DNA of 64,000 nt from Aminithiophilus ramosus (GTDB lineage Bacteria > Synergistota > Synergistia > Synergistales > Aminithiophilaceae): positions 2,943,945 to 3,007,944 of the forward strand of contig NZ_CP072943.1 of assembly GCF_018069705.1 (NCBI RefSeq). Reading direction: 5' to 3'. The translations under genes and the position numbers were made by a program. Positions 20,117-39,840 of this stretch are shown here, piece after piece. Position 1 is the stretch's first letter; every line of letters begins with the position of its first letter. The notes under the pieces were generated by a model. The model made no database searches. It saw nothing but the letters and a program-made list of their open reading frames with translations, and was not told the DNA's origin.

Positions 20117-20221
20117 GCTTTCTGCCTGGCCGTCGAAAAAGGGGAGGTGGTGCGCCGTCAAGCGCTCGAATCGGGGACGGGAAGGGGAAAGGGAATACGG
20201 TGACAGAGAAAGGGGATTGCG

Positions 20222-21229: not shown

Positions 21230-21291
21230 GACATCGGTCGGGGAGGAAGGAAACCGCTCTTCCTCCCCGACCTCAGACCGGAGGTGACTTC

Positions 21292-21834: not shown

Positions 21835-21841
21835 GCCCGCG

Positions 21842-23146
21842 ATGACGATCGCCGCAGCCCTTCTGCTCATCGTGCTCACCCTCCTCGTCGGCCTGCCCGT
21901 CCCCTTCTGCTTCATGCTCTCCACGACCTTTCTCGTCCTGACTCAGGGCTACGCGCCCAGCTTCCTTCTGCCCTACAGTTTCGGCCAGATGAGTTCCGTC
22001 GTCCTCCTGGCCATTCCCCTTTTCATCATGGTCGGCGGCCTCATGGACCGGGGAGGCATCGGGTCGTCCCTCGTCAATCTCGTCGATGTCGTCGTCGGGC
22101 GCGTCAAGGGAGGCCTGGGCGTCGTCGCCGTCGTCTCCTGCGCCGTCTTCGGCTCCATCTCGGGGAGCTGTGCCGCCACCATTTCCTGCATCGGCTCCAT
22201 CATGTTCCCCCGCCTCCGAGAGAACGGCTATCCCATGGGACACAGCGCCGCCCTCGTCTCCTGCGCCGCCCCGCTGGGGCTGCTCATTCCGCCCAGCTCG
22301 CAGATGATTCTCTACGCCTGGGTGGGGCAGCAGTCCGTCCTGGCCTGTTTCCTCTCGACCGTCGGTCCGGGGATCCTTCTGACCGTTCTCCTATCGATCC
22401 TGAACGTCATCATGCTCCGCAGGGACGAAAAGATCTACGTGGCCCCTCCCATGAGCGGGACCGAAACGATGCGGACCTTGGGCAAGCGCTCCTGGGAGGC
22501 CGCTCCGGCCCTCCTCATGCCCGTCATCGTCCTCGGCGGGACCTACGGCGGCATCATGACGCCCACCGAGGCCGCCGCCGTGGCCGTCCTCTACTCCATT
22601 CCCGTCGGCTTCTGGATCTACCGGGGCCTGAACGGGAAGACCTTCGTCGACGTTCTCGTCGAGACCTCGACGACGACGGGCGTCGTCATGCTCATGATGT
22701 TCTGCATCATGATGCTGAGCCGCATCTATGTCATGGAAGATCTTCCTTCGATGATCATGAACGTCCTCCGCTCCGTCTCGACGAACCCCAAGGTCATTCT
22801 CCTCATGCTCAATATCTTCATGATCATCGTGGGCATGATCATGGATGACGTGAGCGCCATGCTTCTGTGCACCCCCATCCTCCTGCCCGTCGTCATGAAG
22901 CTCGGCGTCAGCCCCATCCACTTCGCCGCCATCATCGGCGTCAATCTCGGCATGGGAAACGTGACGCCTCCGACGGCGCCGACGCTCTACTTCGGCGGCC
23001 GGCTGGCCAAGACGCCCGTCTCTCAGATGCTCAAGCCCGCCATGATTTTCATCCTTTTCGCCTGGCTGCCCACTCTTCTGGCCGTCACCTACCTTCCCGA
23101 CCTGGCCCTATGGCTCCCGCGCCTCGTGCTGGGCAACCGATTCTGA
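21842..23146 (+). CDS. dctM: TRAP transporter large permease (DctM)
   Basis: Polytopic DctM-family protein (GGLMDRGGIGSSLVNLV). Confidence 0.85.
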   Translation: MTIAAALLLIVLTLLVGLPVPFCFMLSTTFLVLTQGYAPSFLLPYSFGQMSSVVLLAIPLFIMVGGLMDRGGIGSSLVNLVDVVVGRVKGGLGVVAVVSCAVFGSISGSCAATISCIGSIMFPRLRENGYPMGHSAALVSCAAPLGLLIPPSSQMILYAWVGQQSVLACFLSTVGPGILLTVLLSILNVIMLRRDEKIYVAPPMSGTETMRTLGKRSWEAAPALLMPVIVLGGTYGGIMTPTEAAAVAVLYSIPVGFWIYRGLNGKTFVDVLVETSTTTGVVMLMMFCIMMLSRIYVMEDLPSMIMNVLRSVSTNPKVILLMLNIFMIIVGMIMDDVSAMLLCTPILLPVVMKLGVSPIHFAAIIGVNLGMGNVTPPTAPTLYFGGRLAKTPVSQMLKPAMIFILFAWLPTLLAVTYLPDLALWLPRLVLGNRF

Positions 23147-23162
23147 ACAAGGAGGATCGATC

Positions 23163-24797
23163 GTGGAGCGACGGGAAAAGATCCTCGAACTGCTTTTTGA
23201 TCTCTGCCGCATTCCCAGCGTCTCTCCCGACGCCGAAGGAGAGCTTGCCGTCGTAAACCTTCTGCGCGACCGCCTCGCCCGGGAACCCTATTTCGCCGAT
23301 TCCGGCGGCGATCTGCGCCTTCTCGATCTCGAGAACGATCCGTTGGAACGGAAGGCCCTCTGGGCCCTCGTCCGGGCCGAACCTCCCACGGAAGCGACGA
23401 TCCTCCTCATGGGACACATCGACGTCGTCGCCCCCGAACCTCTGGCCGATCTGCAACGGCTCGCCTTCGACCCTCGGGCCTACACGGAGGCCCTCAAGGA
23501 AATCGTCCTGCCTCGAAAGATCGACGACGATCTCCGCTCGGGCCAATGGCTCTTCGGCCGAGGCGTGGCCGACATGAAAGGCGGCGTCGCCGTCGAAACC
23601 ATTCTCCTGGCCGAGGCCTCCCACCGTCCTGCGACCCTTCCCTGCAACGTGGCTCTCCTCGTCGTACCCGACGAGGAGACGAGCTCCCTGGGCATGACGG
23701 GGTCTCTCCCCCACCTGGTCCGCCTTCAAGAAGAGGGGCTCCGTTTTCTGGGCTGCATCGACGCCGAGCCCACGGTGACGACGGGAGAGGGTGAGGAGGC
23801 CTCCATCCACCTGGGGAGCATCGGCAAGATCAACCCCTTCTTCCTCTGCCTCGGCAGACGAGCCCACGTCGGAGAGTACTACGAAGGCCTTTCGGGAGCC
23901 CTCATCGGCTCTCACCTCAACACGATCCTCGACGGCAACGCCGACCTGACGGACCGCCTCGACGGCGTGGCCTACCCCGGCTACGCCTCCATCTGGCAGA
24001 GAGATCTCCGGCCCGATTACGGAGCCACCCTGGCCGACAGACAGGGACTTCTCTACAGCCGGCTCACCGTCGACGGCCTCCCCTCCGACCTCATGGAGGA
24101 GCTGACGGCGGCGGCCCTGGAGGCTCAGCGACGGGCTCTGTCCCAGATCGACGCCTCGGCGCGCTCCTTCTCTTTCCACCGCCCCCGCCCCGTGACGCCT
24201 CCCGCAGGGGAGCCCCGGGTCGTCCGCTACGAAACGCTGCTCGATCAGGCCTCGGCGGCAGGCGTCGACGTGACCTCTCTGACGGAAACCGTCCTCGAAA
24301 AGAGAAAAAGCGAGGACCCTCGCCTCGCCGCCCTGGAAATCGCCTCGGCCCTCCTCGACGCGTCGGGAGAGAGGGGCCCCCTCATCGTCGTGGGCTTTCT
24401 CTTCCCCTACTACCCGCACCGGATCAACGGGGGACGTTCCGAGGGCGACCGCCGCATGGCCGCCGTCGCCCAAGCCGTGGCCGAGGCGGCACGAAGCCGT
24501 TTCGGCCGTCATCTGGGCCTCCGCCCCCTTTTCGAGGGCGTCAGCGACCTGAGCTACTGCGGCTTTTCCGCCGACAGGGCCGAGCTGGATCTGCTGGCCC
24601 GTAACGTCCCGGGCTGGGGCAGGCTCTACCGCTTTCCCCTGGAGGCCCTGGCCTCTCTCGATATCCCCATCCTCAACGTGGGTCCTCTCGGGCGGGACGC
24701 CCACAAGAGCACCGAGCGCGTCCATCTCCCTTACCTCCTCGACGAACTTCCCTCTCTTCTGGAAGTGGCCATGGCCGAGGCAGCGGCCTTTCGCTGA
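23163..24797 (+). CDS. M20-family metallopeptidase/amidohydrolase
   Basis: GHIDVV motif and ArgE/DapE/CPG2-type fold. Co-operonic with the TRAP transporter. Confidence 0.65.
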   Translation: MERREKILELLFDLCRIPSVSPDAEGELAVVNLLRDRLAREPYFADSGGDLRLLDLENDPLERKALWALVRAEPPTEATILLMGHIDVVAPEPLADLQRLAFDPRAYTEALKEIVLPRKIDDDLRSGQWLFGRGVADMKGGVAVETILLAEASHRPATLPCNVALLVVPDEETSSLGMTGSLPHLVRLQEEGLRFLGCIDAEPTVTTGEGEEASIHLGSIGKINPFFLCLGRRAHVGEYYEGLSGALIGSHLNTILDGNADLTDRLDGVAYPGYASIWQRDLRPDYGATLADRQGLLYSRLTVDGLPSDLMEELTAAALEAQRRALSQIDASARSFSFHRPRPVTPPAGEPRVVRYETLLDQASAAGVDVTSLTETVLEKRKSEDPRLAALEIASALLDASGERGPLIVVGFLFPYYPHRINGGRSEGDRRMAAVAQAVAEAARSRFGRHLGLRPLFEGVSDLSYCGFSADRAELDLLARNVPGWGRLYRFPLEALASLDIPILNVGPLGRDAHKSTERVHLPYLLDELPSLLEVAMAEAAAFR

Positions 24798-24855
24798 AAG
24801 CCCCATGGGCGATACGTAAAACATCCAAGGACACCCAAAGACCAGCCAAAACGGC

Positions 24856-24890
24856 ACAACGGGGCTCTCAAAAACGGAGAGCCCCGTTGT
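24856..24890 (-). terminator. Rho-independent terminator at the 3' end of the gas-vesicle operon
   Basis: ACAACGGGGCTCTC loop GAGAGCCCCGTTGT, with a T-tract on the minus strand after the hairpin. Confidence 0.7.
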
Positions 24891-24929
24891 TGGATAAGCC
24901 GATATATAAATAAATTTATCGAAAATTAT

Positions 24930-25193
24930 CTATTCAATATCCGTATTACCTCTATAACGCAGGTTTTTTCGTTCAAATGAAATCAATCCTCCATTTTCGT
25001 CGAGAAAGACATCGTAACGACCCAACACATCCATCGTTTCCGGTATGGATTTACGCTCAAGCCCTTCGACAGACACAATCCATTGACCATCCATCCTAGA
25101 AACTCCCACCACTCTCTCTACAGAAAGTTGAGCTAAAAGAGAAAGATCTTCTCTGGCTTTTTTAATAGCCTCTTCAGCATTCACAATTTTCAC
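24930..25193 (-). CDS. Small hypothetical protein, last gene of the gvp operon
   Basis: 87-aa ORF, AT-rich codon usage like the rest of the island. No recognisable motif. Confidence 0.4.
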   Translation of the reverse strand: MKIVNAEEAIKKAREDLSLLAQLSVERVVGVSRMDGQWIVSVEGLERKSIPETMDVLGRYDVFLDENGGLISFERKNLRYRGNTDIE

Positions 25194-25215
25194 TTCCCAT
25201 CATTATATTTACATT

Positions 25216-25779
25216 TCAAGCTATAGAGTTAATCCTATTTTCTAAAACGGATTTGATTTTAAGCATATCACGAGAACGCAACAAGAATGAACCACCTGAC
25301 ACAAGAGAGAAATCCATGACATCCATTTCCAAACTACCTTCATCTTTCTTTTTAGTTACATTAAATATATTTACATCCGACAAAAAACATCTCAATATGA
25401 CATTTTTAGAGTTGTTTTGAGAAACAATTAGTTCGTTAGATGTAATACAAAGAAATCCTGATTTCCAATTTTCATAAGGACAATTATTTTTTAGTATAGA
25501 AACAAATGTTTTCAAAAAGACTTTTTCATTCAAATTTAAAATAAGTTTATTTTTTTCTGTTTCTTCAATGGCATATGCCCTTTGAGCTTCATCCCAATCA
25601 TTCCATATGCCATAACGAAGCATTGTCTCCATTCCAGCAATACAAGCCTTAAGACTTAATCCTAACAAAGGAATTCCAGCAACATGAATAATTATATCAG
25701 CATGAAGAACAATTCCTTTATCTAGAATTCTCTCTAACAAATCAACCAAAGTTGCATCGTAATCCCTAGTAGGCTTCAT
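25216..25779 (-). CDS. GvpJ/GvpM-family protein (GvpA-like core plus C-terminal extension)
   Basis: N-terminus LVDLLERILDKGIVLHADIIIHVAGIPLLGLSLKACIAGMETMLRYG aligns with the GvpA core. Confidence 0.7.
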   Translation of the reverse strand: MKPTRDYDATLVDLLERILDKGIVLHADIIIHVAGIPLLGLSLKACIAGMETMLRYGIWNDWDEAQRAYAIEETEKNKLILNLNEKVFLKTFVSILKNNCPYENWKSGFLCITSNELIVSQNNSKNVILRCFLSDVNIFNVTKKKDEGSLEMDVMDFSLVSGGSFLLRSRDMLKIKSVLENRINSIA

Positions 25780-25788
25780 GCTAACGCT

Positions 25789-26625
25789 TTATTCCACGTA
25801 GTTAGAGCTAATACTCCGAGAAATTCCACTTATATCACCAACAAAGCTATAAAGTGGCCAAGGCCCTGTAAATCTGACAGAAAAACTATCATATAATTTT
25901 ATTTCATCCAAAAAATTACCTAAACCGTCAATTTTATCGTTATCAACCATACAGGACAGGTTTAATATCATTTTAGACGAAGCATCAGTTTTTTTAGGCT
26001 TTTCTATTACAATTTCACTGCAGCAAGACAAAACTTTATTATAAAAATAATCAGAAAACTTATTTATTTCAATTAAAACTTCATCCTTAATGGCCTTATC
26101 TAGTTTTTGTTTATACATATAAGCAACTCCCGGAGACTTCAAATCAATATCTTGCTTTAATTTAAGTAGATATTTATTTTCAAAAGCTATTTTATTTTCC
26201 AAAACATCCGTTGCACAAAAAAGCTGGACAACATATTCATTTTTATTTTTAAATCTACGCATCATGCAGGTTAGAGATTCTTGCTCTTCTTGAAGCCATT
26301 TTAATATTACATGATCAGAAGAAAGCTCTCCCTGAGCGCAGACAATCGTATCAAAACTAACAGGGACAACACAATCAAACACCTTACTCGCTTCATCGAG
26401 CACTCGATGATGATCCATCACCCACGCTCGAACTGAATCCGCCTCTGCCGATCGATAAGGCTGCGGAAGACAATCATGAACGATAGCGCATAAATCCCCG
26501 GAGATAATCATGCGAACCGGTTTGCCACCAATCCCCAAAGAAGTGAAAGACACTCTCTCCAAAATCAAGGCAAGACCATAAACGTACCTCCCATCCTCTT
26601 CAAAAGGTGGAAAAACCTTCTCCAT
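25789..26625 (-). CDS. Gas vesicle protein GvpF/GvpL family (copy 2)
   Basis: N-terminal YVYGLALI..GIGG..V motif typical of GvpF/L. Size 278 aa. Confidence 0.65.
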   Translation of the reverse strand: MEKVFPPFEEDGRYVYGLALILERVSFTSLGIGGKPVRMIISGDLCAIVHDCLPQPYRSAEADSVRAWVMDHHRVLDEASKVFDCVVPVSFDTIVCAQGELSSDHVILKWLQEEQESLTCMMRRFKNKNEYVVQLFCATDVLENKIAFENKYLLKLKQDIDLKSPGVAYMYKQKLDKAIKDEVLIEINKFSDYFYNKVLSCCSEIVIEKPKKTDASSKMILNLSCMVDNDKIDGLGNFLDEIKLYDSFSVRFTGPWPLYSFVGDISGISRSISSNYVE

Positions 26626-26696
26626 CGCCAGCGCCCCCTCATTCAGACAAAAAAGGCCCTGTCCTCCATGGCAAACCCATGGCTAAAGCCTCATCT

Positions 26697-27011
26697 TTAT
26701 CTATCAATCTCATCACGCCAACGCTCTGGATTCACAATACGATCCAAAACGTCACCAACCACTTGATCCAATCCATCGCGCACAGCTTGAACCGACTCAA
26801 CAAGGTCATTATCCTTTTTGATTTCTTCTAGAGCAATTTCAAGCTCCATTAAAGCCTCTCCAAGACGCTCACACTCTGCCTCTCGGATAGAGCCTTCATC
26901 CATTCTTTTAACGGCTTCAATTTTAAGAGCATCGCGAATGACTTCAACAAGAGCTACGACCAACCCCAACAACCCCTGCTTCAAATTTCCTTCGTCAATA
27001 TTAAGAGACAT
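26697..27011 (-). CDS. gvpK: Gas vesicle protein GvpK
   Basis: LLGLVVALVEVIRDALKIEAVKRMDEGSIREAECERLGEALMELE matches the GvpK consensus. Confidence 0.7.
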   Translation of the reverse strand: MSLNIDEGNLKQGLLGLVVALVEVIRDALKIEAVKRMDEGSIREAECERLGEALMELEIALEEIKKDNDLVESVQAVRDGLDQVVGDVLDRIVNPERWRDEIDR

Positions 27012-27014
27012 TAA

Positions 27015-27455
27015 TTACTCCTTGTCAAGCGTTATCTTCAACACACCATTCCTATATTCAATTATATGAGACATTTCGTTTGGTATTCTAGGGACGACGT
27101 TCACGGATGCGATTAAAGTAATTTTATTCCCTTCAGAATATATATCCATACATGAAAATTCTTTATTTAATCCTATCTCATCCACAAACCACCACTGGAA
27201 AAACCATTGCTTACCGTCACACGGATCTATTTTTGATTCTTTAAAAACAATAATGGAGTATCCTAATATTTTTTCAGAATTTGTATTTATTATATGTTTT
27301 ATTCTATAAATTATCTCAAAGTCATTCCTACAGCTTAAATCCCGTCTAAGATCCACTATGCTTGCATGACGTCTCCACCAAACGTCCAGCAGCAAAATTT
27401 TGCTTATTGAATCTATGGAATCCAACAAGTCAGATAAAAAATTCCTGTTGTCCAT
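27015..27455 (-). CDS. Hsp20/alpha-crystallin-like small protein (possible GvpH-type chaperone)
   Basis: C-terminal ...EYRNGVLKITLDK resembles the Hsp20 C-terminal beta strand. Weak overall. Confidence 0.4.
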   Translation of the reverse strand: MDNRNFLSDLLDSIDSISKILLLDVWWRRHASIVDLRRDLSCRNDFEIIYRIKHIINTNSEKILGYSIIVFKESKIDPCDGKQWFFQWWFVDEIGLNKEFSCMDIYSEGNKITLIASVNVVPRIPNEMSHIIEYRNGVLKITLDKE

Positions 27456-27463
27456 ATTTAAAT

Positions 27464-27844
27464 TTAATCTACGATAGCAATGGATTCTTCGTTTTTATCC
27501 AACAAAGACTCTCTAGCCCTGGCACTGACCCATCCGCACCAAGGACAACATTTCGACAAAAGCTCTTCCGTAAAAACTCGCTTTCCGCACTGAGGACATG
27601 TTTCCTTGCCTTTTTGCGCTTCTTTCCAGGCATCTGTATTGTAATTTGTTCCACTTGGAAATTCCAATCCATAATGAGCCGCAGTTTCGAAAGAAGCTAA
27701 AGCAGCTCGTATCTTTATTCCAAGCAATTCAACACCTGCTACAGACACGCAAATATCGGCATTGATAACTAAACCCTTATCTAAAACACGGTCGATAACA
27801 TCGACCAGCGTCGAACTTGCCTCTCGTGTGGGTTGCATAGACAT
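27464..27844 (-). CDS. GvpJ/GvpA-family protein fused to a C-terminal zinc ribbon
   Basis: LVDVIDRVLDKGLVINADICVSVAGVELLGIKIRAALASFETAAHYG (GvpA-like) followed by CPQCG...CPWCG. Confidence 0.7.
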   Translation of the reverse strand: MSMQPTREASSTLVDVIDRVLDKGLVINADICVSVAGVELLGIKIRAALASFETAAHYGLEFPSGTNYNTDAWKEAQKGKETCPQCGKRVFTEELLSKCCPWCGWVSARARESLLDKNEESIAIVD

Positions 27845-27853
27845 CGACCGTTC

Positions 27854-28090
27854 TCACCTCTCAGCCTTTATTTTTTTTAATCTTTCTATTAGATCATTTT
27901 CGAGTTCATCGTATTCATTTTCACTCAAGTTTCCATCTTCCAATGATTTTTGAATTTCTTTAAGCCTAGCTCTAATGGCATCTTCTGTCATCAGGCCTTC
28001 CTTATCTATTTCTTTTTTAATGGCAAGAATAATTTCTTTCGACAAAATAACGGGGATACCTATGAAAATATCTTTTATTAAACCTAACAT
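27854..28090 (-). CDS. gvpG: Gas vesicle protein GvpG
   Basis: 78 aa. MLGLIKDIFIGIPVIL...GNLSENEYDELENDLIERL matches the GvpG family pattern. Confidence 0.7.
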   Translation of the reverse strand: MLGLIKDIFIGIPVILSKEIILAIKKEIDKEGLMTEDAIRARLKEIQKSLEDGNLSENEYDELENDLIERLKKIKAER

Positions 28091-28842
28091 GGTTTTTTAA
28101 AATAATTCATTTCCACATTCAAAAACGTATAGGGAGGCAGAGGAGCAATACACTTAAAATTAAATTTATTATTATACTTTTCATCCAATTTATGGATTGA
28201 TTTTATAAAATCGTCTTTATCGGCTTTTTTTACAAGAAATGAGGCGTTTAGCACATTTTCTATACCAGATTCAGAGTCTTTATGGCTATCAAGAGCTATA
28301 TTTTTGAAATAACCATATATATCATCAGAATAAATATTTCTTTTGTCTAGAAGCAATGATTCTACTAATTTGCCAGCATCTATTTTAATATTTTGTTTTT
28401 CTAACAAAGAAGATGTTTTATTAATTTTAGATTTAATTTTAACTATTTCCTTGTTGTTGACTTCAATTTCTTTTATTTCTGAGTTATAATCCCAATAAAC
28501 CTTGACAACCACCTCAATGACGCCTGATAACCGATTTATTTCATTGACTATGGATTCTTTGCTTTTTTGCAGTAAATCCATCATTTCATTCTTAGATGCA
28601 AGTACACCAAATCCTGCTGGGAGTAAAGTGTATTTATCCATCAAAAATTCTTGCACGGTCGCGTGTGTGGAAATATTTTTCCTGGTCGGATATATTTCAT
28701 CGTTACCAAAGTCACTGACAACAGCAGAAATTTTATCTATACTAATAGAATAAACTTTTGAACTATTAATACCAATTACATCAAAAATCTTAAAATCAGG
28801 CTCATTTATAATACCATAAAAATATTTATTTTTAATATTCAT
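28084..28842 (-). CDS. Gas vesicle protein GvpF/GvpL family (copy 1)
   Basis: KYFYGIINEP...KVYSISIDKISAVVSDF is the GvpF/L N-terminal signature. Confidence 0.65.
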   Translation of the reverse strand: MNIKNKYFYGIINEPDFKIFDVIGINSSKVYSISIDKISAVVSDFGNDEIYPTRKNISTHATVQEFLMDKYTLLPAGFGVLASKNEMMDLLQKSKESIVNEINRLSGVIEVVVKVYWDYNSEIKEIEVNNKEIVKIKSKINKTSSLLEKQNIKIDAGKLVESLLLDKRNIYSDDIYGYFKNIALDSHKDSESGIENVLNASFLVKKADKDDFIKSIHKLDEKYNNKFNFKCIAPLPPYTFLNVEMNYFKKPC

Positions 28843-28846
28843 AAAA

Positions 28847-30973
28847 TCACCTCTTGCGTTCCATTACACTATTAATGGCTAAATCAAAATGATTTTTAAG
28901 TATAACAATTTTATTTTCACCGTTTGAAGCCATATATTCTCTTAACGCCAAGCGAGCTGCTTCTTGACATAACTGCTTGAGCTCTGCTCCAGAAAAATCT
29001 TCTGTACGCATAGAAATTTCTTCAAGCGAGACATCGCCATCCAAAGGCATTTTTTTGCTATGTATCTTAAGGATTTCTATCCGATCATCTTTATCTGGAA
29101 GATTGAAATTTAAAATTAGATCAAATCTGCCCGGGCGAATGATCGCTGGATCTATCAAATCTTGCCTATTGCTTGCAGCTAAAACTAAAACATCTTTGAG
29201 CTCTTCAATTCCATCCATTTCGGAGAGGAATTGGCTGATTACTCGATCAATAACTTGAGAATCTCCAAAAGAATGTCTTAGAGGGACCAATGAATCAAAT
29301 TCATCGAAAAATAAAATACAAGGGCTTGCCTGTCTCGCTTTACGAAATACCTCTCGAACTCCTTTTTCCGACTCTCCAACATATTTAGACAAAAGCTCCG
29401 AGCCTTTTACGGATATGAAATTAATTTCACTTTCGTTGGCCATGGCCTTCACCACTAACGTTTTACCCAATCCGGGAGACCCCGAGAGCAAGATGCCCTT
29501 CGGCGGCCGAAGCCCCACGCTCGCAAGCAGCTCGCCATGCTTAAGCGGCCAAGCCACCGCCTCCGAAAGCTGCCTCTTGATCTCGCGAAGGCCACCGACA
29601 TCTTCCCAGCTCACGTCGGGCACCTCCACGAAAACCTCCCGAATGGCCGATGGTTCCACTTCTTTGAGGGCACCAAGGAAGTCGTCCATCATCACTTCCA
29701 TTTGCAAAATATCGATGTCGGCGACCTCTTCGATCCGACAGGTGTAATCGGGAACGACCCTCCGCAGGACGCTCATGGCTGCCTCCCGACACAGGGCCTC
29801 CATATCGGCACCGACAAAACCGTGAGTCACTCGCGACAACCTCTCCAAATCGACATCGGAGGCGAGCGGCATGCCTCGAACGTGGATGCTCAATATCTCC
29901 AACCTGTCCCTCTGGTCCGGTATGGCGATCTCCAGCTCCCGATCAAACCGTCCCGGGCGACGAAGCGCCGGATCCAAGGCGTTGGGTATATTCGTCGCAC
30001 CGATGACAATGACGTCACCGCGCGACTCTAGGCCATCCATCAGAGCCAACAGCTGCGCGACCACCCGCCTCTCCACCTGTTTCTCCCCGCCCATTTCCTC
30101 CCGCTTGGGGGCAATGGCATCGATCTCGTCGATAAAAAGAATCGACGGGGCATTCTTTCTGGCCTCTTCAAAAAAGCCCCTCAACCTGGCCTCGCTCTCA
30201 CCATAAAACTTGCCCATAATTTCAGGCCCCGTCACATGGACGAAATACGCTGCCGTTTCACTGGCGACAGCCCTGGCGATCAGGGTTTTTCCACAGCCCG
30301 GAGGACCATAGAGCAATACCCCCTTCGGGGGATCTATACCCAGTCGATCGAAAAGGCGGGGACATTTCAGAGGAAGTTCGATCATTTCTCGTATTTTTTT
30401 AAGCTCTCTTGACAATCCACCTATATCTTCATAGGATATTTTGGATCTTTTAGTTGAATTTTGTTGAATTTTATCTAATAAAATACGAGTTTTTTGCGAA
30501 ATAAGGACAGGTCCGCCAGGAGTGGTATTATTGACCAAAAAATCCTGATTCCTGTTTCCCATAAAGTTAACTCTTATGAAATCACCCTCTATAACGGCAA
30601 GACCTGTCAAAATGGATCCTATATAGGAAATATCCTTATCTCCAAGTGGAATACGAACGTTTGACAAAGGAGCTATGACAATCTTTTCCGCTAATTTAAA
30701 ATCTATCTTTATTACATTGACGTTATTGTTCAATGACGTTTTTGCATTGTTTCTTAGAGTCCAATCCATTTGAATTATTCTTTTTCCTCGATCTTGCGGA
30801 AAAGTAGGCATTATTTTAGCTATAGTTTGCCTTTCTCCTTCAATCTGAACCACATCGCCTACACTTACACCCATTATTTCCATATCTACAGGGTCTATGC
30901 GAACAATTCCTCTCCCGACATCTTTTAAATTAGATTCAGCTACAATAAATACTGAATTATTGATTTTTCCCAT
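28847..30973 (-). CDS. CDC48/VCP-like AAA+ ATPase (N-domain plus two AAA domains)
   Basis: CDC48-type N-domain (SNLKDVGRGIVRIDPVDMEIMGVSVGDVVQIEG) and two Walker A motifs, GPPGCGKT and GSPGLGKT. D1 is encoded by a GC-rich block. Confidence 0.8.
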   Translation of the reverse strand: MGKINNSVFIVAESNLKDVGRGIVRIDPVDMEIMGVSVGDVVQIEGERQTIAKIMPTFPQDRGKRIIQMDWTLRNNAKTSLNNNVNVIKIDFKLAEKIVIAPLSNVRIPLGDKDISYIGSILTGLAVIEGDFIRVNFMGNRNQDFLVNNTTPGGPVLISQKTRILLDKIQQNSTKRSKISYEDIGGLSRELKKIREMIELPLKCPRLFDRLGIDPPKGVLLYGPPGCGKTLIARAVASETAAYFVHVTGPEIMGKFYGESEARLRGFFEEARKNAPSILFIDEIDAIAPKREEMGGEKQVERRVVAQLLALMDGLESRGDVIVIGATNIPNALDPALRRPGRFDRELEIAIPDQRDRLEILSIHVRGMPLASDVDLERLSRVTHGFVGADMEALCREAAMSVLRRVVPDYTCRIEEVADIDILQMEVMMDDFLGALKEVEPSAIREVFVEVPDVSWEDVGGLREIKRQLSEAVAWPLKHGELLASVGLRPPKGILLSGSPGLGKTLVVKAMANESEINFISVKGSELLSKYVGESEKGVREVFRKARQASPCILFFDEFDSLVPLRHSFGDSQVIDRVISQFLSEMDGIEELKDVLVLAASNRQDLIDPAIIRPGRFDLILNFNLPDKDDRIEILKIHSKKMPLDGDVSLEEISMRTEDFSGAELKQLCQEAARLALREYMASNGENKIVILKNHFDLAINSVMERKR

Positions 30974-31502
30974 TTTTAGGAGATATTTCTATTTTAAAAA
31001 TTCCATTTAAATAAGAATGAAGGAGTGTGTTTTGGTTTACATTGAATTCAGTTTTGATTTCCTTAAAGTATTTTCTTGATTTGCTCTCTGCTTGAACAAC
31101 TATAGTTCCATCTGTTATTTCAATCATAATATCTTCTTCATTCACGCCGGGCATTTCTAGAACTATAACCATTCTATCTTTTTCGTTAAAAATATCCGTT
31201 ATAGGTTCCCTGACTTCTTGTTGGTTATTTTCCAAATCAGATATTTTTTTATTTCCAAATGTTTCAATTATCGGCTTGCCTGCTAAATTTTTTACAGTAA
31301 AACCATAAATGCCCCGAATTCCTTCGGGGCTTTCAATAGATCCCTTTTTTTCAACTACATCAAACCTATCGACCATATCCAATAAACTACCTAACCCCTT
31401 AAAAATTCCTTCAAAACTTATTTTACCTTTTTTGAAATCTATCTCTATTTTATCTTTCTCTTCATCCGGATTTTCTTTTTTTTTACTATTATCCATTGTC
31501 AT
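30957..31502 (-). CDS. Hsp20/alpha-crystallin family chaperone (GvpH-like)
   Basis: Alpha-crystallin domain: MVIVLEMPGVNEEDIMIEITDGTIVVQAE ... NGIFKIEISPK. Confidence 0.75.
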   Translation of the reverse strand: MTMDNSKKKENPDEEKDKIEIDFKKGKISFEGIFKGLGSLLDMVDRFDVVEKKGSIESPEGIRGIYGFTVKNLAGKPIIETFGNKKISDLENNQQEVREPITDIFNEKDRMVIVLEMPGVNEEDIMIEITDGTIVVQAESKSRKYFKEIKTEFNVNQNTLLHSYLNGIFKIEISPKNGKNQ

Positions 31503-31535
31503 TTACGCAACACCCCGATCTAGGCGCTAAAACAT

Positions 31536-32465
31536 CTAATAATTCTCAACATTACCATATGGTTCTCTTTCAATATTGCTGGCTGCATCAATAATAAGCC
31601 TAGAAACCGAGGCTCTTTTTTTACTTGATATAATTGGCAATATAGTATCGTTGCATATTTCAATAAATCTATCTTCAGATATGTTGCCCTTTTTATCCAA
31701 AAAATCTATATATTTCGCTATTTTAATAGAAGACCGCACAGTGGGAGTAAGTTTATCCGAATAGTTATTTCTTATGGTTCTTATTAATTTAACTATTCTA
31801 ACTATTTCGCTTTCACATAAATCCACTCTACCTCGCACAATTGCTACTTCCGTCTCTTCGTCAAAGCTGCTTAACTCCAATGTTACCAGTCTATCTTTTA
31901 ATGCATCTTGACTTTTATAAACACCGGCATATTCCTCTGGGTTGGACGTGAATATCGCCCTGAAGTCGGGATGAACCCTAACGTAAGACTCTTTACCATT
32001 TCTACCCGAAACAGGAAGTATTTTACTCTCCAGCACTGATAAAAGGACGTTATTGGCCTCTGGTCTAGATCTAGTGAATTCATCATAGACAAGCGTCAGT
32101 CCACGCTCACACGCGACAGTCAGCCTGTTATCAAACCACTGAGACGTCATTACATCTTCTGTCTTGACAACAGACCTAATAAAATTGTCTTTAGTGTAAT
32201 TATGACGATATCCGGACACATAACCGACCAGATCGGAAGTTCCAAATTCATGATCACCACAAATCAAAACGACAGGACGACCTATTTTTGCGGCCACATG
32301 CATCGCTAAAGTCGTCTTGCCCACTCCAGTAGGTCCGCTTAAATGAATAGGAAAGCCACAGGAAGAATAACTAAGGGCTTTTTCGGATATTTTTGATATG
32401 TATGGAGTTTCTACAAACTCCAAGCTTGGCCTTGAAGTAATAAGCGTCATCCTTCCTCGATCCAT
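31536..32465 (-). CDS. gvpN: Gas vesicle protein GvpN (MoxR/CbbQ-like AAA+ ATPase)
   Basis: Walker A LSGPTGVGKTTLA, Walker B LVYDEF. Size 309 aa is typical of GvpN. Confidence 0.8.
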   Translation of the reverse strand: MDRGRMTLITSRPSLEFVETPYISKISEKALSYSSCGFPIHLSGPTGVGKTTLAMHVAAKIGRPVVLICGDHEFGTSDLVGYVSGYRHNYTKDNFIRSVVKTEDVMTSQWFDNRLTVACERGLTLVYDEFTRSRPEANNVLLSVLESKILPVSGRNGKESYVRVHPDFRAIFTSNPEEYAGVYKSQDALKDRLVTLELSSFDEETEVAIVRGRVDLCESEIVRIVKLIRTIRNNYSDKLTPTVRSSIKIAKYIDFLDKKGNISEDRFIEICNDTILPIISSKKRASVSRLIIDAASNIEREPYGNVENY

Positions 32466-32492
32466 AACTTAAATACCTCCAAAATCACAGGA

Positions 32493-32873
32493 TCAGTAAT
32501 GCATTTCAAAATTCTCATCATTCACTGCGTCGCCATCGCTTGAGTCGCACATATCAGAGCTATTCTCTTTTTGCAGTTCTCTGCGCAACTCCATCAGGGC
32601 TTTATTTTTGTCAATAATAACTGCAAGCTTCTTTCTGGAATTCAAAAGGCGCGCCCTGGCTCTCTCGACCGATTGCAACCTAGAGGCGAAACGCCTCTTC
32701 TCTCGCTCGAGCATCGTTTGGAAATTGCGATCCTTTTCCAAATCCGGAGCATCGTTATTATCAAAGGCACGAAACAAAGCACCTGTCGTCCTGGCTTTTT
32801 GGCCACGGAAAACTTCAGCATTGCTTTTAATATGGCGCATTGTTCGAAGTTTAGTCAGAGCTTCACTTTTCAC
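32493..32873 (-). CDS. Hypothetical basic protein between the coiled-coil gene and gvpN (possible GvpO-like)
   Basis: 126 aa, helical and charged, with an acidic C-terminus. No firm motif. Confidence 0.4.
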   Translation of the reverse strand: MKSEALTKLRTMRHIKSNAEVFRGQKARTTGALFRAFDNNDAPDLEKDRNFQTMLEREKRRFASRLQSVERARARLLNSRKKLAVIIDKNKALMELRRELQKENSSDMCDSSDGDAVNDENFEMHY

Positions 32874-33888
32874 CGATTTCTACCTCCCCTTCTGACAAAG
32901 GGAAATAAAGCTTACCCTCCCTTCGAATCCCGCCCTCATCCAAGAGATTTCTTGACACTCGTCCCAACGCCACTGTGGCCATGCCCAACTTATCGGCCAC
33001 ATCGGTCAGGGAGATACCTTCAGGATGCGCCTTAATGACTGACAAAAACCTGGTCTTAAGATCTTCCCCCGTCACAGCAAAGTCCTCTTCCTCCGTTGCG
33101 CGTTCAAGTACGGAGCAATCCGGGTCCCTCTCATCCGCCTCGGGAGAGGCGTCATCTCTTGATTCGACGGAAGGTTCGGCTTCAACCTCATCGTCTTCGC
33201 AAGACTCTTCATTCACAAGGCATTCCGACCAAACCGCTCTCGTCTCCTCAAGCAAGTCAATAATGACCTGCCTTTCTTTGTTTAAATTATTTCTTAACAT
33301 ATCTACGCTTTGTTTCATGTTGGAAATATCCGCTAATCTTTTTTGACGTAATTCATCGAATTGATTTTTTAATGATTCACGAATGTCACTTAAAATATCT
33401 TTAACCTCTTTATGCAGGTTTTCTATCTCAATCTTACGGTTATTGATATTCAATCTAACATTTTCATTATACTGTTTTTTTAGCGATAAAATCTTTTCTC
33501 TTGATGCTTCTATTCTCTTCTTATTTTCTTCTTTGAGCTCTTCTCTTATATCTGGGGTATTTTTTTGGGATGCCAACCTTGACGCCTCAAAAAGAAGATC
33601 AAGCTCTTTTTTGAAGCCATCCAACATATCTGCCGTGGATTTTTTAATTTCCATGACTTCTTCTTCTATTTTCTTTTTATTTTGAACCAGCTTTGATTTC
33701 ATCGACTCTTTCTCATCAAATCTCTCGGTAGAAAAGGTTTTAAGTGTTTCATCTATTGTTTTTTTAAGATCTTGGAGATTTTGATATCTATCGGCATGAG
33801 AATCAGCCAACTCCTGAACCAATGACCTAGTCTCTTCCAATAAATTCACAGTCCATCCCTCCTCGGTTATTATGGTTTTAAATCTCAA
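32863..33888 (-). CDS. Coiled-coil protein with C-terminal winged-helix (MarR/ArsR-like) domain
   Basis: About 230 aa of heptad-rich, K/E-rich sequence, then ISLTDVADKLGMATVALGRVSRNLLDEGGIRREGKLYFPL. Confidence 0.5.
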   Translation of the reverse strand: MRFKTIITEEGWTVNLLEETRSLVQELADSHADRYQNLQDLKKTIDETLKTFSTERFDEKESMKSKLVQNKKKIEEEVMEIKKSTADMLDGFKKELDLLFEASRLASQKNTPDIREELKEENKKRIEASREKILSLKKQYNENVRLNINNRKIEIENLHKEVKDILSDIRESLKNQFDELRQKRLADISNMKQSVDMLRNNLNKERQVIIDLLEETRAVWSECLVNEESCEDDEVEAEPSVESRDDASPEADERDPDCSVLERATEEEDFAVTGEDLKTRFLSVIKAHPEGISLTDVADKLGMATVALGRVSRNLLDEGGIRREGKLYFPLSEGEVEIGEK

Positions 33889-33939
33889 AACCCATTATTT
33901 TGCAATTTAACATAAAAATTCATCTAAATGCATTAATAA

Positions 33940-34641
33940 TCAAATTTCATCGCGTGTTGCGATAGGTTCTATTCTATATTGCGATCTTTCATCTTTAAAT
34001 CTACCCAAAGTGGCTCTTACTTCTTCTCTTCTTAAATCCCTATCTTGTTCTCTTGTAAATCTACTTTTTATTGTTTCAAGCTGCCACATGTCTTTCATTT
34101 CTAGGGAGCTGGACCGCTCCAACAGGCGGCGCATAGAATTGTTCCATTCCAACATTATTTTTTTATAGCATTGAATTTTATACTGAAATTTACATAATTG
34201 CTGAAATACGTCGTCTCCGTTTTTTTGATAAGTCCCTTTCATTTCATCAACGAAACATTCCAGCTCTTTTTTATCTATAGTCTTTTTAATGCAATTATAA
34301 ACTTTAGTTTTAAGAGTTAGCGTCAACTCTATCTGTTCTTTTAAATATCTCCTCAGAGATAGCTCGATTTCTTGACTATCAGCTATAAGAACGTCTCTAT
34401 CTTTATCTATTCCATCAAAAAGCCTATTCATGAAGTTATCAAAATCTTTTTTTCTGAAAGAACAATTTCTCGCTGCCATCTCTCTCAAGTCTACGCGCAG
34501 GTGATCGCGCTCTTTATGAAGGATTTCCAAATCCTCCGCCAAGCTCGACGTGACCTCATGGACCGTAGAGACCATCTCTTCCACCATGAGGATCCTTGAC
34601 GAATGGGCATCGATAAGATCAAGGAGCATACATTCATCCAT
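33940..34641 (-). CDS. Hypothetical helical protein immediately downstream of the gvpA array (GvpC-position)
   Basis: ORF extends to 34689, but the compositional change suggests the start at MDECMLLD (34641). Confidence 0.4.
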   Translation of the reverse strand: MDECMLLDLIDAHSSRILMVEEMVSTVHEVTSSLAEDLEILHKERDHLRVDLREMAARNCSFRKKDFDNFMNRLFDGIDKDRDVLIADSQEIELSLRRYLKEQIELTLTLKTKVYNCIKKTIDKKELECFVDEMKGTYQKNGDDVFQQLCKFQYKIQCYKKIMLEWNNSMRRLLERSSSLEMKDMWQLETIKSRFTREQDRDLRREEVRATLGRFKDERSQYRIEPIATRDEI

Positions 34642-34732
34642 TTTCGATACTTGGCCTCCCGAGGAAGGGCATATGGCCTGGCAGGGCACGCTTGCGAAAC
34701 AAGGGAACCCTGGCAGACCTCCACAAAGGAAC

Positions 34733-34942
34733 TTACGCGGAGATCGGAGCCGTCAGGCCGACCGCTTCGGCGTACTTCAGGTAGGTCTCCACACCGGCGA
34801 CGACCACCCGTGCCTCGACGGTCAGAAGTTCCAGCCCCAACAGGGAGATCCGCACCCACGCATCGATCACGAGACCCTTGTCGAGAATCCGATCGATGAC
34901 CTCAGCCAGACCCGACGAAGCCATAGACGTCTGCACTGCCAT
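34733..34942 (-). CDS. gvpA: Major gas vesicle structural protein GvpA (copy 3 of 3)
   Basis: [69 protein letters not shown] is canonical GvpA. Confidence 0.95.
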
Positions 34943-35011
34943 TTCGTTCCGCCTCCTTACGAGTCTTTCCTTGGGCTTTCCTTGCCTCCTGCGGGAGGGC
35001 GCCGCCGATCC

Positions 35012-35221
35012 CTACGCGGAGATCGGAGCCGTCAGGCCGACCGCTTCGGCGTACTTCAGGTAGGTCTCCACACCGGCGACGACCACCCGTGCCTCGACGG
35101 TCAGAAGCTCCAGCCCCAACAGGGAGATCCGCACCCACGCATCGATCACGAGACCCTTGTCGAGAATCCGATCGATGACCTCAGCCAGACCCGACGAAGC
35201 CATAGACGTCTGCACTGCCAT
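35012..35221 (-). CDS. gvpA: Major gas vesicle structural protein GvpA (copy 2 of 3)
   Basis: Protein identical to the other copies. RBS GGAGG 8 nt upstream of the ATG. Confidence 0.95.
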
Positions 35222-35290
35222 TTCGTTCCGCCTCCTTACGAGTCTTTCCTTGGGCTTTCCTTGCCTCCTGCGGGAGGGCGCCGCCGATCC

Positions 35291-35500
35291 CTACGCGGAG
35301 ATCGGAGCCGTCAGGCCGACCGCTTCGGCGTACTTCAGGTAGGTCTCCACACCGGCGACGACCACCCGTGCCTCGACGGTCAGAAGCTCCAGCCCCAACA
35401 GGGAGATCCGCACCCACGCATCGATCACGAGACCCTTGTCGAGAATCCGATCGATGACCTCAGCCAGACCCGACGAAGCCATAGACGTCTGCACTGCCAT
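35291..35500 (-). CDS. gvpA: Major gas vesicle structural protein GvpA (copy 1 of 3, promoter-proximal)
   Basis: Identical GvpA. RBS AGGAGGTG upstream. AT-rich promoter region at 35510-35640. Confidence 0.95.
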
Positions 35501-35509
35501 TTCGTTCAC

Positions 35510-35650
35510 CTCCTTTCTTGTACGCTAAACTTGCAGAATACTACATCAGCATTCTTCAAGGAACAAGGCCTTTTTAGCATTTTTTAATAAATATTTATAC
35601 TTCTTGACATGAGTCTCCGTCAGACAGGGGCAATAATATTAGAAGATACT
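35510..35650 (-). promoter_or_regulatory. AT-rich promoter region for the gvpA-led operon
   Basis: Only AT-rich stretch upstream of gvpA. Contains TTGACA-like and TATAAA/TAATAT-like hexamers. Exact -35/-10 pairing not resolved. Confidence 0.4.
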
Positions 35651-36252
35651 GCTCTGTTCTCCGCCTTGTTTCATTTTTTTGGAAAACACGACCAACAGCA
35701 CCCCCGGCAATCGCTTCAGGGGAGACAAGACAGACCAGCACCGCAGGACCTCGGAGAGGCCCGCGTACGAGAACGAACCCACAGCCGGATTCACCTGGGG
35801 CTCAACCCCAGCACGACAACCCTGCTACGGCGACGGAACAGGCGAAAAGGGGAGAGGAGAGGTAACATAGGGAGAACAGCGGAGAGGAAGATGGGAAGGA
35901 ACGGCGTCGAACGTCGTTTTCGCTTCGCTGCACCTGTGAAGGGAAGGCCAATAGAACAAGACGAACTATTGAAAATTGCAACCTTACAAGCAGATTATAG
36001 CACCTGATTGCCTCTGTCAAGGACCGCTTTTTCTCTTTATCGTGGACGAAGAGGGCTCGTCTCCGCCCGTGGGGAAGGCTCGGAAAGCCCCTGGCGGAAG
36101 GGGACGGGCTGTCGCACCATGACGGCGTCCAGGAAGACGTCTTTCGAGGCTTTTGACCGCCCGAATCGGCTCTGGCTCGCGAAAACAGGGAGAAAACGGT
36201 CGGTCCGGGATGCCCTTCGGGCAGTCTTCACCGCTCCCGACGGGAGGCCTCC

Positions 36253-37470
36253 TTGCGGAAAGGACGACGAACCATGGGGAAAGGCCCTTCGGAGACAGGA
36301 ATTCCTTCCTCGGCTCTTTCGGATAGAATCTCTCCGCCCTTCCGCCTCATAGGGGGCGATCCCTCGTTCACGGGAACTCCGCTGAAAAAAGGCGCCGTTT
36401 TTCGCCACCCCTTCGACGGGGAAGGAGGCCAACGTCTCTGGGTCGATTCGGGGCGCTCGGCCCTGGCCGTCGCCCTGGCCGCCCTGAGGGAGAGGGGAGC
36501 TCGGCGGGCCTGGCTGCCCTTTCTCTGCTGCAGCTCCGTCGTCGAGCCCTTTCTCGAGGCCTCCTTCTCGCTCCGCTTCTACGGCCAGTCGGGCCGCACC
36601 CCTTTCTGGACCGCTCCCCCCTCGGAGCTGAGACCGACAAAAGACGACGTCCTTCTGTTCATCCACTATTTCGGCTTCCTCAACGAGGGGATGGCCGCCT
36701 TTCTCGACGGGCTCGACGAGGCCAGGCGTCCCTTCGTCGTCGAAGACGCCGTCCCGGCCTCCCTCACCGAAGGGACGGGGCGTTGGGGCGACGTCACCCT
36801 CAGGAGTTTCCGCAAATTTCTCCCCGTCGCCGACGGCGCCGTCGTCGCCTCCCGCGATGCCTTCCTGGCGGGAACGGTCTGCCTGGGGGCACCCGACATC
36901 CGACGGCTGCGGCTCAAGGGCTGGGCCGCCCTGGGGCGGTACCTCTGCCCCGACGAGGGACGGCGCTGGCTCGCCCTGGCTCGCCAGGGCGAGGAGCGCT
37001 TCGACGGAAGGCCCCGGCTCCCCTCGCCTCTGAGTCTGAAGATCCTGGCGCGCTGCGATCTGCCCTCCGTCGTCGCGGCTCGGCGACGGAACTACGAAAG
37101 GCTCCTTGAAGAGCTCGAGCGCCACCGTATCCTGGACCCTCTTCACCCTATCGCGGAGAGGCTCCCTCCCCACGTCGTCCCCCAGGGACTGCCCCTCCGC
37201 CTTTTCGGTGGCTCCCGGGACGAAGTCCTGCGCCGCCTGCGCCGTGAAGGGATCTTCTGCCCCGTCGACTGGGGCGTCAACAGCCTGGCCGAGGCTCCCG
37301 CCGAGGAGGATGCAGGCGTGGCCCGCTCCCTTCTCGTCCTTCCCGTCGATCAGGGGCTGAACGGCCAGGCTCTGTCCTTCATCGCCGACAGGGTGGGAGA
37401 CGCCCTGCGGACGGGCGGACAGCCCCCTTCACTCTCGCGCCGCCGGGGAGACCGGCCGGCGACACGTTGA
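36253..37470 (+). CDS. PLP-dependent DegT/DnrJ/EryC1/StrS-family aminotransferase-like protein
   Basis: Family pattern SGRSALAVALAAL..RAWLPFLCCSSVVEPF and SFRKFLPVADG (SF-x-x-K lysine). True start may be internal. Confidence 0.5.
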   Translation: MRKGRRTMGKGPSETGIPSSALSDRISPPFRLIGGDPSFTGTPLKKGAVFRHPFDGEGGQRLWVDSGRSALAVALAALRERGARRAWLPFLCCSSVVEPFLEASFSLRFYGQSGRTPFWTAPPSELRPTKDDVLLFIHYFGFLNEGMAAFLDGLDEARRPFVVEDAVPASLTEGTGRWGDVTLRSFRKFLPVADGAVVASRDAFLAGTVCLGAPDIRRLRLKGWAALGRYLCPDEGRRWLALARQGEERFDGRPRLPSPLSLKILARCDLPSVVAARRRNYERLLEELERHRILDPLHPIAERLPPHVVPQGLPLRLFGGSRDEVLRRLRREGIFCPVDWGVNSLAEAPAEEDAGVARSLLVLPVDQGLNGQALSFIADRVGDALRTGGQPPSLSRRRGDRPATR

Positions 37471-37622
37471 TGCGATACTTGCAATATTCACAGTCAAATA
37501 AAAAAACAACGCAACAGGAGGGGCAACGGCGCCGACGGCCGAGACCGAAGCTGATATAATACCGTCACGCTCTCCCGGAGCGGAGTCCCCTCAATACCTC
37601 TTTTAACGGATTCGGAAAGGGT

Positions 37623-39776: not shown

Positions 39777-39787
39777 GCGCACGACAC

Positions 39788-39840
39788 AGGACAAAAAAGG
39801 TTCCGGCCTCCGCGGAGGCCGGAACCTTTTTTGTCCTGTC
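39788..39840 (+). terminator. Rho-independent terminator after the MCP gene
   Basis: GGTTCCGGCCTCCG / CGGAGGCCGGAACC stem followed by TTTTTTG, inside a larger 53-bp palindrome. Confidence 0.75.

Follow-up and report, generated by a model that had tools for sequence, protein, structure and literature searches.

A GC-rich tract confined to the D1 region of a CDC48-type ATPase gene in the AT-rich gas vesicle cluster of Aminithiophilus ramosus

The penicillin-binding-protein genes of Streptococcus and Neisseria are examples of recombinant mosaic genes, and a model of the amelioration of AT-rich horizontally acquired islands was reportedly put forward by Lawrence and Ochman. Accessory DNA is generally AT-richer than core DNA, and Lassalle et al. 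in 2015 are said to have described GC-biased gene conversion in bacteria, with a higher GC content at third codon positions (GC3) of recombining genes. Why GC-rich bacterial genomes stay GC-rich is an old open question; mutation is generally AT-biased, and selection and biased gene conversion are the candidates for GC maintenance. Mosaic genes from homologous recombination between diverged alleles are the subject of a methods paper (PMC3241670), and core versus accessory composition has been treated as well (PMC5303225). Here we describe a CDC48-type AAA+ ATPase gene that lies in an AT-rich gas vesicle cluster of Aminithiophilus ramosus (Synergistota), and of which one contiguous internal block of about 900 bp is GC-rich. 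The stretch analysed, hereafter the window, comprises 64,000 nucleotides of contig NZ_CP072943.1 (positions 2,943,945 to 3,007,944).

The chromosome segment in the window has 65-70% GC, and a composition scan delimited an AT-rich island inside it at ~24870-35600. The island borders are sharp, with GC falling from ~0.65-0.70 to ~0.30-0.40 at ~24850 and the flank level being regained at ~35600-36000. The island is a gas vesicle cluster of ~10.7 kb, all of whose genes are encoded on the minus strand, and its GC content is ~36% outside two GC-rich tracts, one in the ATPase gene and one around gvpA.

A GC-rich block inside the ATPase gene

The ATPase gene (28847..30973, minus strand) is intact and encodes a CDC48/VAT-type double AAA+ ATPase of 708 aa, which is 100% identical to the NCBI protein 'CDC48 family AAA ATPase [Aminithiophilus ramosus]'. 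Pfam placed CDC48_N, the double-psi barrel, at residues 9-90 (7e-22) and CDC48_2 at residues 113-164 (4.9e-09) of the N-terminus, and found AAA (2.7e-88) and AAA_lid_3 in two stretches each. The translation carries the Walker motifs GPPGCGKT and ILFIDEID in the first AAA domain (D1) and GSPGLGKT and ILFFDEFD in the second (D2). With a CDC48 N-domain and two tandem AAA domains, each having its own Walker A, Walker B and lid, the protein belongs to the CDC48/VAT group.

The base composition of this gene is strongly uneven along its length. In 30-codon intervals, GC3 is 0.17-0.40 over codons 1-195, 0.57-0.80 over codons 211-510 and 0.23-0.37 thereafter, and two-breakpoint maximum-likelihood segmentation located the block at codons 215-513, i.e. 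29435-30331, with a GC3 of 0.70 inside versus 0.28 outside. The likelihood-ratio statistic was 127.8 for the block, versus a maximum of 19.3 among 200 codon shuffles, confirming that the intragenic mosaic is real and highly significant. A preliminary description of this DNA had already noticed a GC-rich block at 29440-30330, in D1 of an otherwise AT-rich CDC48-like gene, and the computed GC3 profile, which is anything but flat, bears this out with nearly identical limits. That description had also called the block flank-like, which does not hold, since its GC3 of 0.70 compares with 0.78-0.90 in the flanking genes and its third positions prefer G over C, whereas those of the host prefer C over G. 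In ~75 orthologues from other genomes, the GC3 of D1 stays within ~0.1 of that of N and D2, versus a difference of +0.40 here.

The GC-rich tract (29435..30331, minus strand) begins shortly ahead of the first Walker A motif, GPPGCGKT, and extends through the AAA domain of D1, the D1 lid and the D1-D2 linker to a point slightly beyond the Walker A motif of D2, GSPGLGKT; at its third positions, G outnumbers C. It is bordered by an AT-rich 5' part that encodes the N domain and the N-D1 linker (30332..30973, minus strand; GC3 0.26) and has an AT-shifted amino-acid make-up, and by an AT-rich 3' part that encodes most of the D2 AAA domain (28847..29434, minus strand), where GC3 is 0.30 even in the most conserved motifs. 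The mosaic is visible in the protein too: the ratio GARP/(GARP+FYMINK), where GARP stands for the amino acids with GC-rich codons and FYMINK for those whose codons are AT-rich, reaches 0.64 in D1, versus 0.37 in N and 0.42 in D2, so that D1 ranks among the highest of the family and N and D2 among the lowest, which points to long exposure to opposite compositional pressures. The breakpoint support intervals are codons 205-230 for the start and 511-515 for the end in the window, and 191-198 and 494-498, respectively, in the metagenome contig L001. This boundary shift of ~18 codons was considered as a sign of independent recombinations and found weak, the edges being graded shoulders and not swapped alleles.

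A second GC-rich, slowly diverging tract (34500..35570, minus strand) comprises three gvpA copies, a spacer and about the first 60 codons of orf249, and thereby crosses a gene boundary from gvpA through the spacer into a poorly conserved gene. The GC3 of the gvpA coding sequence is 0.79, with third positions again richer in G than in C; between the window's lineage A and the metagenomic lineage C defined below, the tract is 95-100% identical in nucleotides, and codons 1-60 of orf249 have a third-position identity of 0.92-0.95. The gvpA copies (34734-35570) form three tandem units of 279 nt, units 1 and 2 being 100% identical and unit 3 83%; a same-species metagenome-assembled genome (MAG; L086) has only two copies, so that copy number varies within the species. 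In the spacer and the start of orf249 (34500-34740), the 95-100% identity between A and C lies above that of the host M20 peptidase gene fragment (88%) and of D1 (88-90%), which could reflect recent inter-lineage exchange or an unrecognised regulatory or RNA element.

Furthermore, GC3 was compared with protein identity to the orthologues of L005, a relative at the 70% level, in 20-codon intervals of ten island genes. The correlation had a rho of 0.35 over all intervals and of 0.08 (p 0.43) after removal of D1 and gvpA. In D2, the intervals over codons 521-560 are 85-100% identical to L005 in protein and yet have a GC3 of 0.25-0.35, while a poorly conserved interval of D1, codons 401-420, has a GC3 of 0.80. 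The tract behaves as a contiguous stretch of DNA and not as a set of selected sites, ignoring local protein conservation, and for this reason a recombination origin stays the leading idea.

Age, divergence rates and relatives of the tract

The island was found at the same locus in three lineages. Lineage A consists of the window and L089; lineage B of the same-species MAG plus two Logan contigs (L086-L088), whose flanks match the window at 97-98% identity; and lineage C of the metagenome contigs L001-L004, with 82% nucleotide identity in the island and 90% protein identity in the ATPase. L089 is the 3.20-Mb chromosome CP074691 of 'Aminirod propionatiphilus', which matches the window over 20 kb (20000-40000) with an identity of 99.2-100% in each 500-bp stretch; the identical ATPase protein is also filed under Aminithiophilus ramosus (3.11-Mb contig), and CP074691 and A. 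ramosus seem to be either a single organism with two names or a pair of very close strains. The mosaic GC3 profile is the same in all three lineages, as computed for the window, L086 and L001-L003, and a lineage C contig continues beyond gvpO, across the same hairpin, and reaches the M20 peptidase gene at its 3' end, the host core gene that flanks the island in the window as well. The same locus and the same mosaic in three lineages of GC-rich hosts imply that the island, with its GC-rich D1, was already there in their common ancestor. In lineages B and C, none of the fifteen island genes is disrupted, and ratios of nonsynonymous to synonymous divergence (dN/dS) are low, that of the ATPase being ~0.04 versus lineage B.

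Synonymous divergence (dS, by Nei-Gojobori) differed markedly within the ATPase gene. Between lineages A and B, it was 0.025-0.073 in four flanking core genes, among them 0.057 in the M20 peptidase gene (23163..24797) that served as the calibrator of host divergence, and 0.07-0.23 in the AT-rich island genes. In the ATPase gene, N and D2 had 0.165 and 0.153, but the D1 block only 0.023, with five differences in 897 bp of which none changed an amino acid (dN 0). Between A and C, dS was 1.19 in N, 2.09 in D2 and 0.535 in the D1 core, and 78 synonymous changes fell within the D1 block; third-position identity was 0.65 in the AT part, 0.74 in D1 and 0.76 in the host M20 fragment, which is 37 codons long and the sole host fragment. 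D1 diverges at the host-core rate, and the AT part about three-fold faster.

Concomitantly, the AT part has a GC content of 36.5% in A, 35.9% in B and 36.2% in C. Its GC3 is 0.316 in A versus 0.303 in C, with W/S mismatches, i.e. positions with A or T in one lineage and G or C in the other, at 68% of saturation; for D1, GC3 is 0.70 in A versus 0.71 in C, at 52% of saturation. A process with the host equilibrium would have moved the GC3 of the AT part to ~0.54, and equal GC in three lineages despite such turnover means that the island is not ameliorating. Amelioration had been suggested by a parsimony polarisation of the A/B differences in the AT part (180 W-to-S versus 86 S-to-W) and was rejected on the equal direct GC counts; the 180/86 asymmetry is best explained by the known polarisation bias under a distant outgroup and skewed composition.

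N, D1 and D2 were each compared with 332 retrieved homologues and gave the same ranking: their own clade, then P0005/P0006 (54-57% identity in N, 80% in D1 and 65-67% in D2), then a broad Chloroflexi-led group (~51%, ~75% and ~61%, respectively). The ATPase branch is 1.3-1.4 times as long as that of P0005 in N, D1 and D2 alike. The preliminary description had offered a chimera of two different sources, and had named shared closest relatives for all segments as an outcome that would refute its proposals; the separate comparison returned the same nearest relatives for all three, and the two-source chimera is given up. In the protein search, which covered 5.8 billion proteins, no D1 more than 80% identical was found outside the own clade; the best D1 match in a scan of species-representative genomes, which did not return the source genome and is silent on paralogues within it, was 79% in a Thermovirgaceae MAG. 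A D1-only protein search had listed only proteins of at most 536 aa (an apparent target-length limit of ~1.75 times the query), without the query's own protein, and was replaced by a D1-centred search with a 421-aa query, in which full-length proteins were listed. Among the top 120 matches of the latter (a cut-off of ~73% identity), there was no second Aminithiophilus or Aminirod protein, and no paralogue of the ATPase lies in the window, beyond which the chromosome was covered at the protein level only. P0241, which scored 929 bits in the D1-centred search, was considered as a donor and rejected, being a Bathyarchaeota fragment 61% identical in D1.

The ATPase is a member of a gas-vesicle-linked subfamily. 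Among 67 loci of at least 8 kb with CDC48-type orthologues (orthologous loci L007-L085), 60 have at least two gas vesicle genes nearby, usually together with an Hsp20-like gene, and the loci span many phyla, including Chloroflexi, Atribacterota, Nitrospirota and Acidobacteriota. Synergistales CDC48 genes that are not gas-vesicle-linked are 70-71% identical in D1, versus 75-80% for the gas-vesicle-linked relatives.

Codon usage sets D1 apart from the host and close to the relatives. Its third positions are A.10, C.28, G.41 and T.20, versus C.55 and G.31 in the host; its relative synonymous codon usage (RSCU) correlates with that of host genes at only 0.45, and it uses the host-avoided codons TTG (0.34), AGG (0.36), GGT (0.35) and GAT (0.56). 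The sister orthologue L005 has A.16, C.26, G.38 and T.20, near the D1 values, and the two closest relatives outside the clade, L005 and L006 (a Thermovirgaceae fragment), are compositionally flat with a GC3 of ~0.6. This match of D1 to flat relatives suggests that D1 is near the ancestral composition; the simplest inference from these sequences is that the AT-rich remainder of the cluster would be the derived state and D1 the unshifted part. D1 was also considered as decayed host-like DNA, which was rejected, as neither the frequent TTG, AGG and GGT codons nor a third-position preference for G over C can arise from host usage by decay.

Origin and maintenance of the two compositions

We tentatively regard the tract as an old mosaic, made by recombination between two versions of the same cluster, one GC-type and one AT-type, a reading that we hold at somewhat less than even confidence. 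GC-type and AT-type versions of the gas vesicle cluster would have diverged in composition, homologous recombination between them, by allelic replacement or gene conversion, would have occurred before the three lineages split, and GC-type tracts would have been left where the versions were most alike, i.e. in D1 and in gvpA with the start of the next gene. A recombination mosaic explains why the tract is contiguous and indifferent to conservation, why a second one spans a gene boundary, why the protein is mosaic in its amino-acid make-up, and why the composition matches that of the sister orthologue. Of the recombination proposed in the preliminary description, the contiguous, tract-like behaviour of the block thus stands, while the paralogue and two-source forms fail; among the forms of recombination, the data are compatible with only one, an exchange between two versions of one orthologous gene that had diverged in composition. 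Several observations, however, weigh against this reading. The D1 synonymous divergence is 2-7 times below that of N and D2, and both compositions are unchanged in all three lineages at 52-68% of saturation, neither of which is explained by a single old event. At the nucleotide level, the tract edges are graded shoulders with synonymous changes of mixed direction and no clean junctions. D1 shows no phylogenetic incongruence with N and D2, branch lengthening being proportional in all three, and neither a uniformly AT-type or GC-type close relative nor a donor was found in the protein and genome collections. Recombination between two cluster versions is something we infer, and neither parent version has been sampled.

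An alternative that we rate almost as highly, though likewise below even odds, is that two regimes are maintained in place: the cluster would be native to this part of Synergistota with a starting GC3 of ~0.6, most of it having escaped the force that holds the synonymous sites of the host GC-rich and drifting fast, at a near-neutral rate, to an AT-rich mutational equilibrium, while D1 and the gvpA tract would still be under the GC-maintaining force. A possible candidate for that force is recombination-linked GC-biased repair or inter-strain homogenisation, acting only where sequences are similar enough to recombine. This fits with the stationarity of both compositions (0.316/0.303 in the AT part and 0.70/0.71 in D1), the equal GC of the AT part in the three lineages (0.365, 0.359 and 0.362), a similar rate ratio at the two time depths of A versus B and A versus C, the congruent phylogeny with proportional branches, and a gene order, including three lineage-specific open reading frames (ORFs), that is common with L005. 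It is opposed by the lack of an established mechanism to exempt one 900-bp tract, GC-biased gene conversion in bacteria being itself disputed, and by the failure of the tract to track protein conservation at the 20-codon scale. Moreover, simple mutation-selection theory gives a rate ratio of ~1.1-2 by our own calculation, not 3-7, and the D1 codon choice is not host-like, so the force would not simply be the one acting on core genes. The recombination mosaic concerns the origin of the pattern and the two regimes its maintenance, and the two are not mutually exclusive.

Other explanations fare much worse. Selection for translational accuracy or efficiency might favour GC-ending codons at the most critical residues, in line with D1 being the most conserved segment, gvpA encoding the major structural protein and the rho of 0.35 across all intervals; we consider it improbable, because no correlation is left once D1 and gvpA are taken out (rho 0.08), nine highly conserved intervals elsewhere, including the D2 Walker B region, have a GC3 of only 0.37, a poorly conserved D1 interval is GC-rich, the second tract reaches into a spacer and a poorly conserved gene, and D1 uses the host-avoided codons TTG, AGG, GGT and GAT. 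Akashi-type accuracy effects are small, and the odds ratio of ~6 here is far above the known ones. The preliminary description had proposed conversion of D1 by a resident host paralogue, i.e. a native CDC48-like or FtsH-like AAA gene, and the block is indeed GC-rich like the host genome and coincides with the most conserved AAA domain. This is very unlikely, as the nearest out-clade D1 sequences, at 79-80%, belong to gas-vesicle-linked orthologues and the Synergistales CDC48 genes outside gas vesicle clusters are more distant (70-71%); the codon usage is not host-like, the block is older than the split of the three lineages and has diverged with them, and no second copy appeared in the top 120 D1-centred matches or in the window. 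The GC-rich tract is best described as an old part of the same gene, and its being copied from another host gene is not supported. An overlapping functional element in D1, such as a structured RNA or a gene in the antisense or an alternative frame, would constrain synonymous sites and agree with the low D1 synonymous divergence and with long antisense ORFs, e.g. 29537-30031 on the plus strand (164 aa). We give this idea hardly any credence: a scarcity of the sense codons TTA, CTA and TCA is expected to open this antisense frame by itself, the frame varies in length among the lineages and is closed in L005, the antisense ORFs in D1 have no Pfam match, the island has no Rfam match, promoter-like and terminator-like sites in the island occur at chance frequency only, and the block has accumulated those 78 synonymous changes between A and C. 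Finally, nothing beyond the abrupt change in composition speaks for an assembly chimera or sequencing artefact, whose probability is negligible given that two complete genomes, one MAG and at least six independent ENA/Logan metagenome contigs all carry the mosaic, with the reading frame intact and under purifying selection. Old orthologous recombination and a locally maintained two-state composition are the two readings that survive.

A far-reaching claim would be that two stable compositional equilibria exist within one vertically inherited operon, and even one gene, of a 67% GC genome, one AT-rich and fast (GC3 ~0.3) and the other GC-rich and slow (GC3 ~0.7, two tracts); we judge this rather unlikely. 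If true, the force that keeps GC on bacterial synonymous sites would be local and tract-dependent and not a genome-wide mutational or translational property; an example would be recombination-linked GC-biased repair or homogenisation, forming a self-reinforcing two-state system. The locus offers a natural experiment with one gene, one transcript and one host, in which 900 bp evolve core-like and the adjacent 1,200 bp behave as if unconstrained, being AT-rich, ~3 times faster and without amelioration; as the contrast lies inside one gene, the two parts do not differ in host, strand, replication context or expression level. Were the pattern maintained in place, it would reveal a local, tract-dependent force and serve as a concrete system for testing it; were it no more than the scar of an old recombination, this would be an ordinary mosaic gene with an unusually clean signature.

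The gas vesicle cluster and comparison with known systems

The gas vesicle cluster (24870..35600, minus strand) was delimited by composition, ORFs and Pfam, and occupies the same locus in lineages B and C. Its gene order is gvpA x3, orf249, orf341, orf126, gvpN, hsp20, CDC48, gvpF and gvpG, followed by gvpJ-like, orf146, gvpK, gvpL/F, gvpJ/M-like and gvpO. With gvpA and the accessory gvpN, F/L, G, J, K and O together, it qualifies as a gas vesicle cluster, and the Pfam matches in the island are Gas_vesicle, GvpL_GvpF (twice), GvpG, GvpK, GvpO and AAA_5 (GvpN-like). The AAA_5-type ATPase gene gvpN (31536..32465, minus strand; Pfam AAA_5 1.4e-16) is AT-rich with a GC3 of 0.33, as is the Hsp20-like gene (30957..31502, minus strand; Pfam HSP20 1.1e-05; GC3 0.23), which lies directly upstream of the CDC48 gene and overlaps its start. 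Three consecutive genes, orf249, orf341 and orf126 (32493-34689), are without a convincing Pfam family; their order is kept in L005 and in lineages B and C, and they are putative accessory genes for gas vesicles that are peculiar to this lineage. The GvpJ-like protein (27464-27844) has, judging by its translation, a C-terminal extension with two CxxC pairs (CPQCGK...CCPWCGW) that is zinc-ribbon-like.

Small GC-enriched patches were observed elsewhere in the island. Codons 41-70 of orf126 (~32640-32760) have a GC3 of 0.60-0.75 in lineage A, 0.40-0.60 in B and 0.20-0.45 in C, and codons 151-180 of gvpN (~31950-32040) have 0.45-0.65 in A, 0.25-0.30 in B and 0.25 in C; in one 90-nt stretch, there are seven A/B differences, all with G or C in A versus A or T in B. 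These patches, enriched in lineage A only, could be small conversion tracts or local substitution bursts.

The island is flanked by the M20 peptidase gene (23163..24797, plus strand; Pfam), whose GC3 is 0.80. Between gvpO and this convergent gene lies a GC-rich hairpin, AACGGGGCTCTC...GAGAGCCCCGTT, at 24860-24930; its position is conserved in lineage C, compensating differences are visible in the alignment, and it is probably a bidirectional terminator at the island border. The island is transcribed in the direction opposite to its checked neighbours, i.e. DctM and the M20 peptidase on one side and orf405 and a chemotaxis receptor on the other. Its coding strand has a strong excess of G over C, with a plus-strand GC skew of -0.2 to -0.4 versus ~0 to -0.15 in the flanks. 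No tRNA was found anywhere in the window, no border repeats at the island, and no integrase-like ORF among the island and border ORFs in the ORF and Pfam scan.

A full-text literature search found no paper on CDC48 linked to bacterial gas vesicle clusters, and a literature search returned nothing on gas vesicles of Aminithiophilus. The ATPase resembles the CDC48/p97/VAT double-ring AAA+ unfoldases in having an N domain of the double-psi-barrel type ahead of D1 and D2, both with lids and intact Walker A and B motifs, and differs in that its subfamily is bacterial and adjoins gas vesicle and Hsp20-like genes.

As for the cluster, a ~10.7-kb AT-rich block with sharp borders in a 65-70% GC chromosome is much like an ameliorating foreign island. 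In contrast to such islands, it has no tRNA, integrase or border repeats, it is at the same locus in three lineages, its GC is equal in all of them despite near-saturated third positions, a relative with 50% GC has the same gene order, lineage-specific ORFs included, and the cluster holds two GC-rich tracts. It therefore shares only the composition of a foreign island, and neither mobility signatures nor drift toward the host were seen. This cautions that an AT-rich island need not be recent foreign DNA, nor a GC-rich patch host-derived.

With recombinant mosaic genes, the ATPase gene shares a significant, contiguous internal block of different character that ignores fine-scale conservation. 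Unlike in those genes, there is no nameable donor, the relatives are not incongruent and the edges are graded; the mosaic is also old, both compositions having stayed constant through heavy synonymous turnover. To the cases of GC-biased conversion, it is similar in that divergence between strains is low in the GC-rich tracts and high in the AT-rich parts, but here the contrast lies within a single gene at a 900-bp scale, no recombination partner was identified, and the codon style of the tract is unlike that of the host core. The pattern is an evolutionary oddity and not a new molecular system; the mosaic is unusual in lying within a gene, in its age, in the lack of an identifiable donor and in a composition that is stationary on either side.

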